Shown: positions 26,571 to 32,775 of the stretch, in pieces
How the letters are laid out: each line of letters begins with the position of its first letter
How positions within the stretch are numbered: the first letter of the stretch is position 1
NCBI GenBank assembly: GCA_007376745.1
Contig: VMGU01000001.1
Coordinates: 1-34,611 of the forward strand
Source: Parcubacteria group bacterium Athens0714_26
Lineage (GTDB): Bacteria; Patescibacteriota; Minisyncoccia; UBA6257; 02-FULL-45-10c
DNA: 34,611 bases
Direction: 5' to 3'
The notes under the pieces: model-generated
The model's database searches: none
What the model was told of the DNA's origin: nothing
What the model saw: the letters and a program-made list of their open reading frames with translations, nothing else
Translations under genes and position numbers: made by a program

Positions 26571-28018
26571 CTCAATATAAAATGATATCCGATTTCTATT
26601 TTTACGTCGCCACTAAGCAATATCCCGCACTCTTTACCCTCGGTAACGCTAACCGCGTCTTTTTTATTCTGCTGAAGATTGATAATTTTACCCTTACCAA
26701 TAATATCCTTTCCTTTTTGAATTTCTATCCAGGAATTATTTTTCATAATGCCTTTTATCACCTGTCCGCCGATGATTTGCTTGCCGGCTTTTTTGCCGAA
26801 CACCGCCAAAACCTCAAAATCGCCTTCTATTTTCTTTTCATCCAAATTCTTCAGATAACTTTCTACGGCTTCTATGAGTTCATAAATAATTTCCGAGTTG
26901 ATAATGGCTATTTTATTGTCTTTAGCGAGGTTTTCCGCCGCCTTATTGGCGCGCACTCTGAAACCTATGATAATAGACCCTGTGGCAATAGCATCCTTAA
27001 CGTCGCCGTCTGCGATATCTCCCACTGATTCGCCGATAAATTCTATCCCCTGATTTTCTCCCAAGGGAATTTTTTTAATGAGCTCGCTAAGAGCTTCGAG
27101 CGACCCGCCCACATCGGCTTTTAAAATTAATCTTATAACTATGTCTTTTTCGGATTTAACTACTGATTTTTTAACATTTATTTTTGACTTGATCTTTTCT
27201 AAGTCTTCAACAGTTAACTTACCGGCCAAAAATTCTTCGCCGACTTGCGGCAAATTTTCAAAACCCAAGACAATCGCTGGGCTGGACGGATAAAGCTCTT
27301 TAACCCTTTCACCTAAAAAGTTTTCCAGAATTTTTATCTTGCCTTTGGCGGTGGCTGTAGTAATAATGTCTCCCAGTTTCAAACTGCCGTCCTCTAAAAT
27401 CACATTAACCGTAAGGCCTCGCCTGTTGTCCAGCTCTGATTCTAAAATCACTCCTTTGCCGTGGCTTGTAGCGTCATACTTTAAATCCTCTACCTCTGCG
27501 GTGAGCACTATTAAATCCAAAAGTTCGTTAATGCCTTCTCCGGTTTTTGAAGAAATTCCGTGATAGCTTATACTCCCTCCATAACCTTCCAGTAAAACGC
27601 CATTAGCAGTCAGGTCATTTTTTATCTTCTCTATATCGGCATTAGATTTATCTATTTTAGTAATGGCCACTATAAAAGGAGTTTTTGAATCTTGTAATGC
27701 CTTGATTGCCTCTTTGGTTTGCGGCTTTACGCCTTCGTCCGCGGCAACCACCAAAATACCGATGTCGGCCACATGAGCGCCGCGAACACGCATTTTAGAA
27801 AATGCCTCGTGACCAGGAGTGTCAATAAAAGTTATTTTGTTGTTATTATGTATAATTTCGTACGCGCCTATGGACTGCGTTATGCCGCCGGCCTCTTTGG
27901 CAACCACGTTGGTCTTACGGATATAATCCAAAAGACTGGTCTTGCCGTGGTCTACATGTCCAACAACCACCACTATGGGCGGGCGTTTCAATGTTTTATT
28001 TTCGGTGGCCGAAGTCAT
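26567..28018 (-). CDS. infB: translation initiation factor IF-2 (short N-terminus)
   Basis: GHVDHGKTSLLD, DTPGHEAF and TKID G motifs, with C-terminal IF2 domains. Confidence 0.9.
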   Translation of the reverse strand: MTSATENKTLKRPPIVVVVGHVDHGKTSLLDYIRKTNVVAKEAGGITQSIGAYEIIHNNNKITFIDTPGHEAFSKMRVRGAHVADIGILVVAADEGVKPQTKEAIKALQDSKTPFIVAITKIDKSNADIEKIKNDLTANGVLLEGYGGSISYHGISSKTGEGINELLDLIVLTAEVEDLKYDATSHGKGVILESELDNRRGLTVNVILEDGSLKLGDIITTATAKGKIKILENFLGERVKELYPSSPAIVLGFENLPQVGEEFLAGKLTVEDLEKIKSKINVKKSVVKSEKDIVIRLILKADVGGSLEALSELIKKIPLGENQGIEFIGESVGDIADGDVKDAIATGSIIIGFRVRANKAAENLAKDNKIAIINSEIIYELIEAVESYLKNLDEKKIEGDFEVLAVFGKKAGKQIIGGQVIKGIMKNNSWIEIQKGKDIIGKGKIINLQQNKKDAVSVTEGKECGILLSGDVKIEIGYHFILR

Positions 28019-28073
28019 TGACTAAAAATAACAGAAATAGCCGATTTTGTCCAAAAAACAGGCCTTGAAACAA

Positions 28074-28102
28074 TTGAATATTAGGTCAATTTAGCTTAAA
28101 CT
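28074..28102 (+). promoter_or_regulatory. candidate promoter TTGAAT-N17-TAAACT for tRNA-Ser
   Basis: Hexamers at 28074-28079 and 28097-28102. Confidence 0.4.
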
Positions 28103-28122
28103 CTAAAAGTATTGGTGAGGTG

Positions 28123-28216
28123 GCTGAGGTGGCCGAGAGGCTGAAGGCGGCAGGTTGCTAACCTGTTATACGGGTTTAAATCCGTATCGAGAGTTCGAAT
28201 CTCTCCCTCACCGCCA
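28123..28216 (+). tRNA. tRNA-Ser (anticodon GCU) with encoded CCA, preceded by a 9-nt tandem duplicate of its 5' acceptor strand (28114-28122)
   Basis: D arm gccgagaggctgaaggc, anticodon loop ttGCTaa, long variable arm atacgg/ccgtat, T arm gagag-ttcgaat-ctctc, 3' end cctcacc-g-cca. The proximal 5' strand gctgagg gives a C2:C71 mismatch; the upstream copy ggtgagg pairs perfectly. Confidence 0.85.
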
Positions 28217-28252
28217 GATTGGCAACTTTGAACCGAAGTAGAATAAGGCTTC

Positions 28253-28969
28253 TTGGACAAAAGTAATATGCAAAAACGAACATTAACCCAAATTAAAAAA
28301 GCACTTCAAGAACTCTCAAAAAAGGGGTGGATTAAATCTAATCGCAGTCACAATACTGGAATAGGCAAAACTTTAGAGGACTATCTCGGTATTACGGAAA
28401 ACAATATTGCTCTGCCAGACTTTGGAGTAATGGAATTAAAATCTCAAAGACTTAATACTCTTTCGATGATGACCTTGTTCACCAAGAGTCCGGAAGGTAT
28501 TACAAACGCTGAAATAAGAAAACGCTTCGGTTATCCCGATCCTGAATTTCCTAAGATTAAAATTCTTCATCAAACCATCAGTGATGGTAAGAGAAATGGT
28601 ATGGGATTTCAGGCTACTATTGATGAGAAGCAAGGGAAATTATTGATTCTCAAAAAGGGCAAGCTTTTAGGATATTACAGTTTGGCGTTTTTGAGGAAAA
28701 AAGCTATCGAAAAAATAGGAGATGGGTTGATATTGGTTCGTGCTGAAACAAAAAAGATTCGGGGGCACGAATACTTTCACTATAAAGATGCTTATGTTTT
28801 GAAAGAAATTGATCCAACTAAGTTTCTTGCTCACTCAAAATATGATATCCGCTTAGGCGTTTATCATAGTGGTAAAAACGCAGGTAAACCACATGACCAC
28901 GGCTCGGCATTTCGCCTGACCGAAAAATCTCTACCACTTTTGTTTAAGATTCAGAAAAAAATTCTCTAA
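28253..28969 (+). CDS. type II restriction endonuclease, MvaI/BcnI (MutH-like) family
   Basis: NTGIGKTLEDYLGITENNIALPDFGVMELKSQR parallels the BcnI segment GQILERQFGVQENNITLGDLGEFELKGMR as I recall it, giving PD...ELK catalytic residues. C-terminal KPHDHGSAFRL parallels GPHDRGPHLRI. TTG start at 28253 has the SD taagg; an alternative ATG is at 28268. Confidence 0.75.
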   Translation: MDKSNMQKRTLTQIKKALQELSKKGWIKSNRSHNTGIGKTLEDYLGITENNIALPDFGVMELKSQRLNTLSMMTLFTKSPEGITNAEIRKRFGYPDPEFPKIKILHQTISDGKRNGMGFQATIDEKQGKLLILKKGKLLGYYSLAFLRKKAIEKIGDGLILVRAETKKIRGHEYFHYKDAYVLKEIDPTKFLAHSKYDIRLGVYHSGKNAGKPHDHGSAFRLTEKSLPLLFKIQKKIL

Positions 28970-30831
28970 TTCTTCCTTAGGACAACAATACTTTCCTTAT
29001 TCATTGTTTCCTCTAGAGCGCCAACAATATTTGTTGGAGAGTTTTTGATTGGCATTCTTTTCCCCGGAATATTTCGGACAATTATATCTTCGCAAGTAAA
29101 ACCTATCTTTTCTGCTAATTCCGCAATAATAAAGTCGGTTGGAATTCGTACTTGTTTAACCAGTCTATTTCCGACAACGAGGCAAAAGTATTTTCCTGGT
29201 TTAAGTATTCTATGAGAATGCTTCAAACATTCATTCAATCCGAGATTAAAACTCAATACATCTTTTGCCCTTGCTTCGTCTTGCTTAGCAATTTTTTCTA
29301 ATGATTCTTTGAGATAACCAGATGAAAGTGTGTGAATCAAATTTTTGGTAGCTCTACCCCCAAGGAGGTCGTTATCTACCCCAGAGGCATCATTTGGGTC
29401 TTCAAATACATCAATCCATTGGGCAGAGAGCCTAGAAAACTGTCCGTAAGCTACCGTAGTACGACTATCACCATATGGAGGTGAGGTGACTATGCAATCA
29501 ATAGAGTCCGCTTTAATTCCGTTGTCTTTTGATGAATCACCATAGATTATTTTTGTCCACGAATCCTTTTTTGCATCTTTGTAAAATTCACTCATTCCGG
29601 CGATATTTTTCTCTGTGTGTTTGCGAAATATCCCAATAACATCCGGATCATGTTTTTCCAGTTTTTCCCCTTTAACACGCACTAGTTTAAATTCCCCAGT
29701 CTTTGTATTTGAGGAATAGCGAACTGTCTCACTAAAAGCGACCATTAGAAAATTCTGAATGGTTTCATCTTTTATTTCTCGTATAGCTTTCTTTAATTTC
29801 GCAAGTTTAACGATTACCTTATCCTTAAACCAAAAATCAATATTCTTAAAATCTGGTCTTTTTATCTCGTTATCTTTAATTTTTTCTACTCTATCAAGTA
29901 AAGTGAGATATTCTTTTGTTAATTTTTGAGGATTGATTGGGGTTGTTTTTGCTTTCGCAAGAAAAATAGCTAGAGGATTAAGGTCAATACCATAAGCATT
30001 TCTCCCTATCAATCTACTTTCGACTAAAGCTGAGCCAGAGCCACAAAAAATATCGCAAATTGTATCACCCTCTTTACTATAAGTTTCTAGTAATCTTCGT
30101 CCAACCTGTGGAATAAACATTGCGGGATAAGTATGTATTCCGTGCGTGTATGATTTTGTTTTTTCACCTCTATAGTCCCAGGAGTAATCTATTTTACGGA
30201 CGTACTTCTCATCTCTTGATTGCCCTTGATCAAGTTGTGATTCAAGATTGCGAATAATTTTAACGACAACACCTCTCACTTCTACTTCATCACGATAAAT
30301 TGGGAAAAGTGTCGGATTTGCCGGCTGGAGTCTGAACTTCCCATTTTCACGATACAGCTTTTTGAGTGTTGCTTCATTGTCATCAATGACTACCACAACG
30401 GTCTGACCATTTTCTGCCACATCCTGTTTACGGATTACAATAATATCACCATCAAAAATACCTTCATCGATCATACTGCTACCTTGAACTCGCAGGGCAT
30501 AGTGTTTGCCTTGCTTTCCAATTTCATCTTTTGCTATCGTGATAGTCTCATCAGAAATTTCTATGGCTTCGATTGGCTGACCTGCGGCGATTGCCCCAAG
30601 AATAGGAATCTCTATCATCTGCTTTGCTTCTACTGTCGAGACAGCTCGTGGTTGATTGTGTTCTTTATTCAGAAATCCAGCATCTTGAAGTTTACTGATG
30701 TAATAGTGAGACGTGGAAGCAGAAGCTAGTTTAAATTTTTGCCTTATTTCCTCAAGAGAGGGAGCATATTCATGCCTTGCTCTATAAGATTTGATGAAAT
30801 CAAGGACTTGCACTTGCTTTTTTGTGAGCAT
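28966..30831 (-). CDS. fusion protein: full-length LexA-type repressor (wHTH + S24 autopeptidase, aa 1-~195) joined to an amino (N4-C/N6-A) DNA methyltransferase (aa ~230-621)
   Basis: LexA landmarks fall at near-E. coli numbering: Ala83-Gly84 in ILGAIAAGQP, GSSM with Ser119, ATLKKL with Lys157. MTase motif I is DIFCGSGS (30031-30054) and motif IV is TSPPY (29473-29484). It is one uninterrupted 621-codon ORF. Confidence 0.8.
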   Translation of the reverse strand: MLTKKQVQVLDFIKSYRARHEYAPSLEEIRQKFKLASASTSHYYISKLQDAGFLNKEHNQPRAVSTVEAKQMIEIPILGAIAAGQPIEAIEISDETITIAKDEIGKQGKHYALRVQGSSMIDEGIFDGDIIVIRKQDVAENGQTVVVVIDDNEATLKKLYRENGKFRLQPANPTLFPIYRDEVEVRGVVVKIIRNLESQLDQGQSRDEKYVRKIDYSWDYRGEKTKSYTHGIHTYPAMFIPQVGRRLLETYSKEGDTICDIFCGSGSALVESRLIGRNAYGIDLNPLAIFLAKAKTTPINPQKLTKEYLTLLDRVEKIKDNEIKRPDFKNIDFWFKDKVIVKLAKLKKAIREIKDETIQNFLMVAFSETVRYSSNTKTGEFKLVRVKGEKLEKHDPDVIGIFRKHTEKNIAGMSEFYKDAKKDSWTKIIYGDSSKDNGIKADSIDCIVTSPPYGDSRTTVAYGQFSRLSAQWIDVFEDPNDASGVDNDLLGGRATKNLIHTLSSGYLKESLEKIAKQDEARAKDVLSFNLGLNECLKHSHRILKPGKYFCLVVGNRLVKQVRIPTDFIIAELAEKIGFTCEDIIVRNIPGKRMPIKNSPTNIVGALEETMNKESIVVLRKN

Positions 30832-30871
30832 ACTGATAGTATAGATGATAATTAGAATGTATACAAGTATA
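30830..30871. promoter_or_regulatory. dyad-symmetric candidate operators in the divergent promoter region
   Basis: ATACTgatAGTAT (30830-30842) overlaps the MTase start codon and -10. TATACaaGTATA lies at 30860-30871. GTATA/TATAC half-sites are repeated. Confidence 0.35.
30838..30866 (-). promoter_or_regulatory. candidate promoter TTGTAT-N17-TATACT for the LexA-MTase gene, probably giving a leaderless or very short-leader mRNA
   Basis: On the minus strand the -10 ends 6 nt before the ATG. There is no SD. Confidence 0.45.
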
Positions 30872-30889
30872 ACTTATCCACAAAAAACT

Positions 30890-31132
30890 ATGGCAAATTA
30901 CCACGTTACAAAAGACAAAGAATCAGGTGATTGGAAAGCAAAAAGAGAAGGAGCTGATCGAGCTGCTGGTCATTATGACACCCAAGCAGAGGCAGAGAAA
31001 GCGGCAAAAGAGTTTTCTGCTAATACTGGTGGTGGTGAAGTGAGGATCCACAGTCCAAAAGGGCCAATCCGAGACAGCGATACAGTAGCCCCCGGAAACG
31101 ATCCATACCCACCTCGCGATAAAAAACATTAG
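30890..31132 (+). CDS. DUF2188-family small protein (80 aa)
   Basis: MANYHVTKDKESGDWKAKREGADRAAGHYDTQAEAEKAAKEF...GGEVRIHSPKGPIRDSDT fits the DUF2188 pattern (yhV...gW.vk.eg..ra...f.tk.eA...A...a....e..ih...G.i). The ORF-track start at 30845 is probably too far upstream. Confidence 0.7.
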   Translation: MANYHVTKDKESGDWKAKREGADRAAGHYDTQAEAEKAAKEFSANTGGGEVRIHSPKGPIRDSDTVAPGNDPYPPRDKKH

Positions 31133-31136
31133 GATT

Positions 31137-31847
31137 ATGAGTAGCTTGTTGCACCCAAGAAACATATTGAAGGGAAAAATAGTACAGATATTGATAACAA
31201 TTGTTGTTTTATTTTTTGGCCTGTATTTGGCATGCCCCACATTTAGAGATTACCTTTCTGAACAAAAGATTGATGCCAACTTTGTGCTGGGATTCTTAAC
31301 AGTCATTACTCTTATGGTCAGTATTTGGCAGAATACCAAAGATAGAAAGCTAACCTATAACATGAATGTTTGGGAGTCGGTGAGAGACAATGGTTTAGCA
31401 ATAATAAGTAAACTGATTGCAATAAGGCAAAAAAGTGACATTATCGTCAAAACTCTAAAGAGCCACCATGAAGCGATAAAGAATAAGCAAGTATTCATGG
31501 ATTTTAATGATACCCTGTCAAAAAGAGATATTGACGATGGATTTCAGATAGTGACTGCTTATGCGGATACGTATTTCAGAGAAGAGTGTGAAGGATGGAA
31601 TGAGATGCTAAACAAATTGAGTACTATGGCAACAGATAATATAAACGTAATCAAGAATTATCAGATCAATTTGCATTTAATTATGAGTGGGACTAATTTT
31701 ACAAATCCGACTCTAGATAAGTTGGATGAAATAATCGCTAATGCAGAAAAAACGGATAAAGAAATTGGTGAGATCACTGGGGAGATGAGAAATAAAATTA
31801 TCGAGAAGACAAATAGTATTAGTGATAAAATTAAAAATAATTTATAG
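31137..31847 (+). CDS. hypothetical 2-TM membrane protein with a helical C-terminal domain (236 aa)
   Basis: TM1 is IVQILITIVVLFFGLYLAC and TM2 is FVLGFLTVITLMVSIW. It starts 4 nt after the DUF2188 stop, so it is probably co-transcribed. Confidence 0.6.
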   Translation: MSSLLHPRNILKGKIVQILITIVVLFFGLYLACPTFRDYLSEQKIDANFVLGFLTVITLMVSIWQNTKDRKLTYNMNVWESVRDNGLAIISKLIAIRQKSDIIVKTLKSHHEAIKNKQVFMDFNDTLSKRDIDDGFQIVTAYADTYFREECEGWNEMLNKLSTMATDNINVIKNYQINLHLIMSGTNFTNPTLDKLDEIIANAEKTDKEIGEITGEMRNKIIEKTNSISDKIKNNL

Positions 31848-31995
31848 CGCTGACATTAAATTATTGAATAATCTACGGCACTTTGCCCCTTATCCGACTT
31901 CGGCTTTGGCGTCTCGAACCATTCTGGATGAACTTTGTAGATAACTCTTAGTTTCTGTATACTTTTATCAAGATCCTCGAATTTGAGCCGCTTTT

Positions 31996-32019
31996 TCCTT
32001 CGACTTTGCTCAGGACGAG
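31996..32019 (+). repeat. copy of the short repeat tccttcgac...gctcagga (would translate as FDFAQDE)
   Basis: tccttcgactttgctcaggacgag, related to the copies at 32969-32993 and 33018-33043. Confidence 0.5.
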
Positions 32020-32139
32020 TCGGTTCAAAGTCCCGGGCATCGTCCCCGCCAAAATTCGGAATTCAAATTTCCGTCAAAAATATGGTCGGCGCGAAGCGGT
32101 AGTAAAATAGATAAGCATCATTTTTTAAATTAGAGAGCT

Positions 32140-32775
32140 ATGCTAGATACCGATATATTTAGTAAATTTATTAAACATGCGAACGTTGCCCATCAGCAAC
32201 TTTGTGTATGGTTTTCGGCAAATAATGAATTTGCGAAACATCAAGTACGCTGGAACAAACTTGATCCTGAAATTGGACCATTTGGTCTAGAAAATTTCAC
32301 TCGGAAGCACGGGTGTAAATATAAGAATTTTTGGAGCATCGCTATCCCAACATTGCAACACGGATGGATATTGTCGACTGCACGACTCTTCGACCCAGCA
32401 TACCATCCATATGATAAGAAAAAATTAAAACCCCGAATTTGTTTAGAGTATGTCCTAATGAAACTCGATGACCAAACATTGTCAGATTCTATAAGAAAAC
32501 AGATTACCCCTCACGAATCGGTCATCAAATCATTAAAAGTTCATAGAGATAATGCTGAAACGCACAACGATGCCAATTTCACACCTACCCATATTGAGAT
32601 GGGAGTTGAAAATCTTTTCCAATGGCTAGAAGATATCATAGAATTAATCAGGATGTCTAAGCCATATCTAAATGGGTGTGGAATTATTAATATTACTTAC
32701 AACGAAAAGCTGGCACAGTGTGGTGTTGATGAAATTTTTGAAGATTTATTGCTTTCCGAAAAAAATGGGCACTGA
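32140..32775 (+). CDS. HEPN-like (AbiU2-type) protein, putative abortive-infection RNase (211 aa)
   Basis: KVHRDNAETHND contains R-x5-H with the R[DN]xxx[AST]H spacing of AbiU2-type HEPN domains. Composition looks all-helical. The gene stands alone in an accessory context. Confidence 0.4.
   Translation: MLDTDIFSKFIKHANVAHQQLCVWFSANNEFAKHQVRWNKLDPEIGPFGLENFTRKHGCKYKNFWSIAIPTLQHGWILSTARLFDPAYHPYDKKKLKPRICLEYVLMKLDDQTLSDSIRKQITPHESVIKSLKVHRDNAETHNDANFTPTHIEMGVENLFQWLEDIIELIRMSKPYLNGCGIINITYNEKLAQCGVDEIFEDLLLSEKNGH

Follow-up and report, generated by a model that had tools for sequence, protein, structure and literature searches.

A conserved promoter block with a putative direct-repeat operator upstream of a LexA-methyltransferase fusion gene in a Parcubacteria restriction-modification cassette

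The stretch of DNA considered here (the window) comprises positions 1 to 34,611 of contig VMGU01000001.1 of Parcubacteria group bacterium Athens0714_26, whose genome is small (636 kb, 39% G+C) and of the Patescibacteria type. It harbors a restriction-modification (R-M) cassette in which an MvaI/BcnI-family restriction endonuclease gene converges on the gene of a LexA-DNA methyltransferase fusion protein (LexA-MTase), and the stop codons of the two genes overlap by 4 nt. At its other end, the ATG of the LexA-MTase gene is separated by 58 bp from the ATG (30890) of a divergent DUF2188 gene. The Pfam domain LexA_DNA_bind (residues 2-63) lies in the same 621-aa open reading frame (ORF) as N6_N4_Mtase, and all 77 LexA-MTase sequences compared share the residues Ala83-Gly84, Ser119 and Lys157. 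Judged from these features, the protein is a predicted DNA methyltransferase with an extra N-terminal DNA-binding domain, and this extra part has the make-up expected of a LexA of the S24 type, namely a winged helix-turn-helix (wHTH) followed by an S24 domain with an Ala-Gly site, a Ser nucleophile and a Lys base. We suggest that the short region upstream of the gene is probably a portable promoter-operator block of a mobile MvaI/BcnI-type R-M cassette, through which a methylase with a complete N-terminal LexA would repress its own gene. The features of the locus are collected in Table 1.

Table 1. Features of the LexA-MTase locus, with positions in the window (a point marks features given without strand)
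Feature	Position	Strand	Remarks
tRNA-Ser(GCT)	28123..28216	+	adjoins the cassette at the restriction-gene end
MvaI/BcnI-family restriction endonuclease gene	28268..28969	+	convergent; ATG at 28268; Pfam MvaI_BcnI
LexA-MTase fusion gene, 621 aa	28966..30831	-	Pfam: LexA_DNA_bind, Peptidase_S24, N6_N4 DNA methylase
Start codon ATG of LexA-MTase	30829..30831	-	earliest possible in-frame start; N-terminus M-[LI]-T-K-[KR]-Q conserved
Dyad 1 ATACTgatAGTAT	30830..30842	.	read as the forward -10 plus a relic of a reverse-strand -10 (here CATACT), not as an operator
-10 hexamer TATACT	30838..30843	-	6 nt before the ATG; TATAAT in most orthologues
Proposed operator ATTCTAattatCATCTA	30842..30858	-	R1 ATTCTA 30858-30853, R2 CATCTA 30847-30842; direct, period 11
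Dyad 2 TATACaaGTATA	30860..30871	.	-35 flank GTATAC plus variable linker; window-specific
-35 hexamer TTGTAT	30861..30866	-	17-nt spacer to the -10; TTGAC in distant orthologues
DnaA-box 9-mer TTATCCACA (TGTGGATAA on the gene strand)	30874..30882	+	exact consensus; upstream edge of the conserved block
DUF2188 gene	30890..31132	+	divergent; Pfam; no conserved neighbour of the cassette

The LexA-MTase fusion protein is very common. A database search returned 5819 relatives, which are labelled LexA by some sources and PspGI methylase by others, and the best 120 of the 5819 were all at least 88% identical. A scan of species-representative genomes gave 80 loci with 66-97% identity, mostly from many lineages of Patescibacteria and a few from bins labelled otherwise, and the upstream sequence was taken from 76 of them.

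The comparison of these loci indicates that the LexA-MTase gene has its promoter in the 58-bp region. Read on the minus strand, the conserved block consists of a DnaA box (TGTGGATAAG), a 6-nt linker, TTGTAT, 17 nt, TATACT, 6 nt and the ATG; the original prediction, made from the letters of the window, had read the two hexamers, the N17 spacing, the 6 nt before the ATG and the 58 bp between the two start codons correctly. In 37 loci, the two promoter hexamers, their 17-nt spacing and a short distance of 6-8 nt from the -10 to the ATG have been preserved, so that the promoter and the leaderless geometry both rest on conservation, not on consensus strength. With 6 nt between the -10 and the ATG in the window, the arrangement is that expected of a leaderless gene, and a leaderless mRNA would be the natural reading of this closeness, which the kept geometry supports.

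The extent of the block was seen in an alignment of 33 orthologues with the leaderless layout and unrelated flanks. Conservation begins sharply at TG[TG]GGATAAC and drops in the next 6-7 nt, the linker. It is high over TTGTATAC, has its peak over (A/T)TTCTA(A/T)TTAT(T/C)TTCTATAAT and is lower again between the -10 and the ATG. At its far end, the conserved block stops at the DnaA box regardless of the gene that lies beyond.

The promoter spacer is filled by a direct repeat with a period of 11, and its second copy (R2) overlaps the first two bases of the -10. An exact 5-mer recurs at period 11 in 71 of the 76 loci, while the other periods from 5 to 25 are found in 1-15 loci. The family consensus is TTTCTAT-N4-TTTCTAT. 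The half-sites are spelled TTCTA, TTCGG, TCGGG, TCGAA or TTAGG, and each spelling is doubled at period 11, with both copies shifting together. Moreover, the spelling varies with the protein: the recognition helix STAH[YHF][YH] always occurs with TTCTA or TCGAA repeats, and ST[VIA]H[EQK]H always with TTCGG, TCGGG, CCGAA or TTCGC repeats. Heads of the STVHEH type, such as that of locus L044, have their own repeats, TTTCGGGT, in contrast to TTTCTAT for the STAHYY type. In L044, L052, L056 and L057, the methylase body is 88-91% identical to that of the window protein, but the head is only 41-44% identical and the repeat is of the other type. This pattern suggests that head and repeat were exchanged together as a module, as would be expected for a repressor and its operator, and we regard it as the strongest single result of this study. 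As the repeat changes with the recognition helix even at 88-91% identity of the body, the period-11 repeat is likely the operator of the fusion protein, and this predicted operator overlaps the methylase's own promoter.

A position weight matrix (PWM) was built from 48 orthologous operators, with the site of the window left out, and the whole 636-kb genome was scanned. The top match in the genome was 30859-30840 on the minus strand of the window (22.1 bits). The next match (19.1 bits) lies within a coding region on another contig, and all remaining matches scored at most 13.2. The scan gave no second site that would point to a wider regulon, either upstream of the restriction gene or in the rest of the window, and it suggests that the fusion protein has a single target, its own promoter. 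With the own promoter as the only site and an intragenic runner-up, a DNA-repair regulon controlled through SOS boxes is not what the genome-wide PWM indicates. LexA-type autorepression, as originally proposed, is therefore retained in so far as the predicted site overlaps the own promoter and covaries with the head; the dyads, which had been named as the operator, give way to a direct repeat.

Two loci, L068 and L089, each harbor two LexA-headed genes, every one with its own DnaA box and period-11 repeat. The spellings of the two repeats in L068 are clearly different (TTTCTA and TTTTCGGT). It suggests that these pairs are orthogonal repressor-operator pairs in co-resident systems.

In the original prediction, a dimeric LexA-type wHTH would bind the palindromes ATACT-N3-AGTAT and TATAC-N2-GTATA as its operators and repress both the LexA-MTase gene and the DUF2188 operon. 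Both dyads, ATACT-gat-AGTAT and TATAC-aa-GTATA, are indeed present where they were reported, and GTATA/TATAC is enriched in this one sequence, with 4 copies in the region versus 0.29 in mononucleotide shuffles (P ~7e-4, in a post hoc test). One self-complementary hexamer, GTATAC, supplies two of these four copies, and the mean among the orthologues is 1.2 copies. However, when the 64-nt region was shuffled 5000 times with its dinucleotides preserved, 21% of the shuffles had at least two perfect dyads (5-bp arms, spacer of at most 4 nt), as did 18% of the contig windows with similar G+C, which is the level of chance. The alignment of orthologous intergenic regions, proposed with the prediction as a check, does not support the dyads either. 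Among the 37 leaderless orthologues, the window alone has dyad 2. A dyad that spans the -10 and the start codon does occur in 14 of the 37, spelled differently (ATAAT-N3-ATTAT), and also in L043, L071, L075 and L080. Of the distinctive arms, the left one of dyad 2 falls in the linker that separates the DnaA box from the -35, and the right one of dyad 1 in the few nucleotides that follow the -10 up to the ATG; both segments are variable and are the two least conserved stretches of the region. The spacings of the two dyads (3 versus 2 nt) and their registers differ, and a single dimer geometry therefore cannot fit both. A palindrome is present in the promoter of the canonical LexA gene of the host, which would speak for palindromic operators; in the cassettes, on the other hand, the direct repeat varies with the recognition helix and neither dyad does. 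Moreover, DUF2188 lies upstream in 2 of the 80 loci only. We therefore consider the palindromic model very unlikely and hold to the direct repeat as the predicted operator. TAGAAT (30853-30858), which had been taken as a plus-strand -10, is the repeat copy R1 read on the other strand. A 26-bp imperfect palindrome at 30839-30864 was also considered and rejected as an artefact of the self-complementary GTATAC together with the TATACT -10, and it is gone in the orthologues with TATAAT.

The period-11 repeats could also be the operator of another protein, such as the stand-alone LexA or some other factor, in which case the fused head might serve, for example, to tether the methylase to DNA. The genome does contain a second LexA-like gene, which encodes 215 aa (contig C42:689-1294, minus strand), and Patescibacteria are cited in PMC7739468 (ref. 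52) among the lineages with a LexA that recognises direct repeats. However, the spelling of the repeat follows the fused head while the methylase body is nearly constant, which indicates that the two are inherited as one module. The helix of the stand-alone LexA is different (SNQAVLNYL), and its own promoter has the palindrome ATATGACTAAATAGTCATAT and no TTCTA repeats. The same pairing of head and repeat is also found in cassettes of many unrelated host lineages. Another protein as the reader of the repeat thus appears unlikely to us, and the fused head is preferred. In the C42 promoter, the palindrome stands directly before TATAAT, and a near-DnaA-box, GTTATTAACA, lies upstream.

The DnaA-box 9-mer at the upstream edge of the block is separated by 7 nt from the -35 and, on its other side, by 7 nt from the DUF2188 ATG. 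The orthologous promoters (9.9 kb) contain 37 copies of the exact 9-mer and the remaining 497 kb of these loci contain 8, an approximately 237-fold difference in density, and at least 3 of the 8 non-promoter copies sit just upstream of -35-like hexamers. Both orientations of the word are found, at a distance of 1-9 nt from the -35, and it also precedes other LexA-headed methylases (485-543 aa) and several short LexA-like genes. The genome encodes DnaA (contig C32). The word is thus a consensus 9-mer in a DnaA-encoding genome with a non-random, position-specific occurrence, as expected of a DnaA box, and we infer that DnaA may bind here and modulate the promoter. DnaA-box words are also clustered within about 150 bp on contig C68 (1790-1930), with TGTGGATAA twice, GGGGATAAG, GGGGATAAC and TTATCCAAA; this cluster looks like an origin of replication, and dnaA itself is on C32.

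A simpler account would be that the block is just a promoter, with the repeats and the TGTGGATAA word as parts of the promoter architecture or as hitch-hikers in a recently spread mobile cassette. In agreement with it, many orthologues are at least 88% identical, so that the conservation is partly due to recent common descent, and R2 of the window is degenerate. The block is kept, however, while the flanks diverge completely. The architecture also persists, with the repeats respelled, down to 66% identity and in LexA fusions with unrelated methylases, and the DnaA-box word comes in either orientation with variable spacing. We regard this account as quite unlikely, and an operator-bearing promoter as the better reading of the block.

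The other orthologues extend this picture. In 40 of them, a leader of 30-60 nt is found in place of the leaderless layout, and 36 of these 40 have a reverse-strand consensus promoter, TTGACN-N16-18-TANNNT, versus 0.37 expected from shuffles. These reverse promoters (in L075, L080, L082, L085, L090 and 31 more loci) lie no more than about 90 nt ahead of the LexA-MTase ATG. Their -35 is the conserved GTCAA directly before the ATG, and their -10 faces the forward -10 over a few bases, for example as TATACT-TAA-AGTATA in L075 and L080; in 11 loci the reverse spacer also has a period-11 repeat. Leader-bearing close relatives of the window (L043, L071) have ATACT-N3-AGTAT at the position of dyad 1. 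By this match, ATACTatcAGTAT(G) of the window is best explained by the forward -10 next to what is left of a reverse -10. The reverse -35 is absent from the window, which is best read as having lost the reverse half (-35 deleted, -10 damaged) and kept the forward half. It suggests that the control region is bidirectional across the family, near the general idea of the original prediction, with facing promoters and direct repeats and no palindromic operators.

The divergent gene itself does not belong to the conserved arrangement. Among the 80 loci, DUF2188 together with a gene for two transmembrane segments lies upstream of LexA-MTase only in L038, and a weak DUF2188 match was found in L086, so that co-repression of the divergent DUF2188 operon is not a conserved feature. 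Other divergent neighbours encode a SEC-C-motif protein, an AAA_15/AAA_21 ATPase, a SMODS-like (SMODS/NTP_transf_2) nucleotidyltransferase, a TPR protein and an unknown protein. In loci L022-L093, the divergent genes are variable, often defence-like, and commonly start 2-15 nt past the DnaA box. A DUF2188 promoter within the 58 bp would overlap the operator, and co-repression is therefore geometrically possible, in the window only. On the plus strand of this region, the sigma-70 scanner called no DUF2188 promoter and none was convincing. The weak candidates TTGCTT-N17-TAGTAT (30814-30842) and TAGAAT, which has no -35, were not called and not adopted.

Two other kinds of control were considered and rejected. 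Regulation by the methylation state of the promoter is unlikely, since just 3 of the 77 upstream regions contain the cognate site CCNGG, and in none of them does it lie inside the conserved block. An RNA element in the control region was not indicated either, because the 101-nt region folds no better than its shuffles (z = -1.41), and an Rfam search over 27900-32300 gave tRNA-Ser as the sole match.

Several points weigh against our interpretation. Many orthologues are closely related, and the counts given above are thus of non-independent events; the strongest independent evidence comes from the swaps of head plus predicted operator, which are a handful. A generic sigma-70 scan does not call the LexA-MTase promoter, which stays below the threshold because its -35 fits the consensus at only 3 of 6 positions. 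The original prediction had also used the missing Shine-Dalgarno (SD) sequence in favor of a leaderless mRNA. Genome-wide, 9% of the ORFs of at least 200 aa have an SD-like word (GGAG/GAGG/AGGA/AAGG) ahead of their first start, a share that rises to 25% if any start within 40 codons is counted. The 9% is near chance by a rough estimate, and SD sequences thus appear to be little used in this genome. A missing SD is thus uninformative for this purpose, and the leaderless mRNA, although still favored by the geometry kept in 37 loci, loses that argument. The DnaA-box reading comes from the match to the universal consensus and from the enrichment. Finally, the operator of the window is the most degenerate of its class, with CATCTA as R2 and a score of 22.1 versus a family median of 30.5 bits, and with such a low score repression in the window may be weaker than in the family.

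Among Type II methyltransferases, self-repression through an N-terminal DNA-binding region has been reported for M.SsoII, M.Ecl18kI, M.EcoRII, M.MspI and M.ScrFIA (PMC3874152, section 17). LexA-MTase is like the SsoII/Ecl18kI/EcoRII type in having its own N-terminal DNA-binding head and a predicted operator over its own promoter, which would place the antitoxin-like enzyme under negative feedback. In Ecl18kI, competition between facing promoters was reported to contribute to the control (PMC3874152), and the long-leader orthologues of LexA-MTase also have facing promoters. There are several differences from this type. In place of a bare HTH, LexA-MTase has a complete LexA as its head, in which the S24 self-cleavage apparatus is intact. 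Its putative operator is a period-11 direct repeat instead of an inverted repeat, and the methylase falls into the N4/N6 (N6_N4_Mtase) family rather than the C5 class. The restriction gene lies downstream in convergent orientation, unlike the divergent R/M pair of SsoII and Ecl18kI, and a DnaA box belongs to the LexA-MTase block.

A second comparison is with the LexA repressors that recognise direct repeats. In Caulobacter, and in Alphaproteobacteria, the LexA box is the direct repeat GTTCN7GTTC (PMC9578287). The fusion protein resembles these LexAs in its wHTH and S24 domains with the Ala-Gly site, Ser and Lys, and its half-sites, (G/T)TTC, also stand 11 bp apart in direct orientation; several orthologues (L094, L077, L091) even have the literal GTTC-N7-GTTC of Alphaproteobacteria. 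In contrast to them, LexA-MTase is fused to a DNA methylase, has no SOS regulon as far as the PWM scan of the genome gave no second site, and has half-sites that are diversified among the cassettes and swapped with the head. A further comparison can be made with R-M systems controlled by C proteins, in which a dedicated small operator-promoter block likewise times the expression of a mobile R-M cassette. Unlike these, the window has no C gene, as the restriction gene abuts tRNA-Ser, and the regulator is a part of the methylase. In the literature that we searched, there was no description of LexA-methylase fusions, of this promoter block or of a cassette with two inputs.

Taken together, the data suggest the following mechanism for the promoter-operator block. 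The mRNA would start at or beside the start codon. A dimer of the fusion protein, joined via the S24 domain, would set its two winged-helix heads on R1 and R2, and the bound dimer would exclude RNA polymerase from the promoter, leading to autorepression. As the cleavage site and the catalytic residues do not vary, RecA*-stimulated self-cleavage at Ala83-Gly84 should separate the heads from the dimerising body, and more methylase would be made after DNA damage. The S24-methylase remainder is probably active after cleavage, and the DnaA box probably adds an input from the replication status. More tentatively, the block may represent a portable two-input cassette of Patescibacteria on R-M methylases, which joins a DnaA box with a direct-repeat operator and a self-cleaving LexA head and to which fuller versions add face-to-face, operator-bearing promoters. 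Such a cassette would set the methylase by replication (DnaA) and by damage (RecA*), and its head-operator modules might be exchanged against cross-talk; we put this forward as a possibility that is, at present, rather doubtful. As for the original prediction as a whole, the sequences compared here partly support it: it appears right in kind, with an autorepressed, leaderless promoter, and wrong on the operator and on the conserved role of the divergent operon.

Some further observations concern the surroundings of the cassette and the genome bin. At the restriction-gene end, a conserved junction of about 50 nt (…CGCCAGATTnCCAAGTTTGAACCGAAGTAGAATAAGG…) lies next to the 3' end of a tRNA, at 28217-28267 in the window and likewise in L021, L039, L022, L049, L040, L089 and L035. 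Many other orthologous cassettes have an XRE-type (C-protein-like) gene immediately upstream of the restriction gene, which the window lacks. In the bin, two distinct 16S rRNA 5' ends were found, on contig C20 (at ~2425, …GGCTCAGGACGAACGCTGG…) and on contig C43 (at ~792, …GGTCCAGGATGAACGCTGG…). They agree with the stated contamination of 6%, and the bin may mix two organisms.

R-M cassettes must keep the methylase ahead of the nuclease, and the known solutions are C proteins, HTH heads on the methylase and antisense RNAs. In the cassette described here, a whole, apparently cleavable LexA forms the head of the methylase, and its putative operator can be read from the protein-DNA covariation across dozens of natural variants. 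In this way, a palindrome model at the level of chance is replaced by a conserved operator that can be tested. The variants would offer a ready-made set of orthogonal repressor-operator pairs. Moreover, the predicted arrangement suggests that, in ultra-small uncultured bacteria, self-protection may be tied to DNA damage and possibly to the initiation of replication, which can be tested directly.

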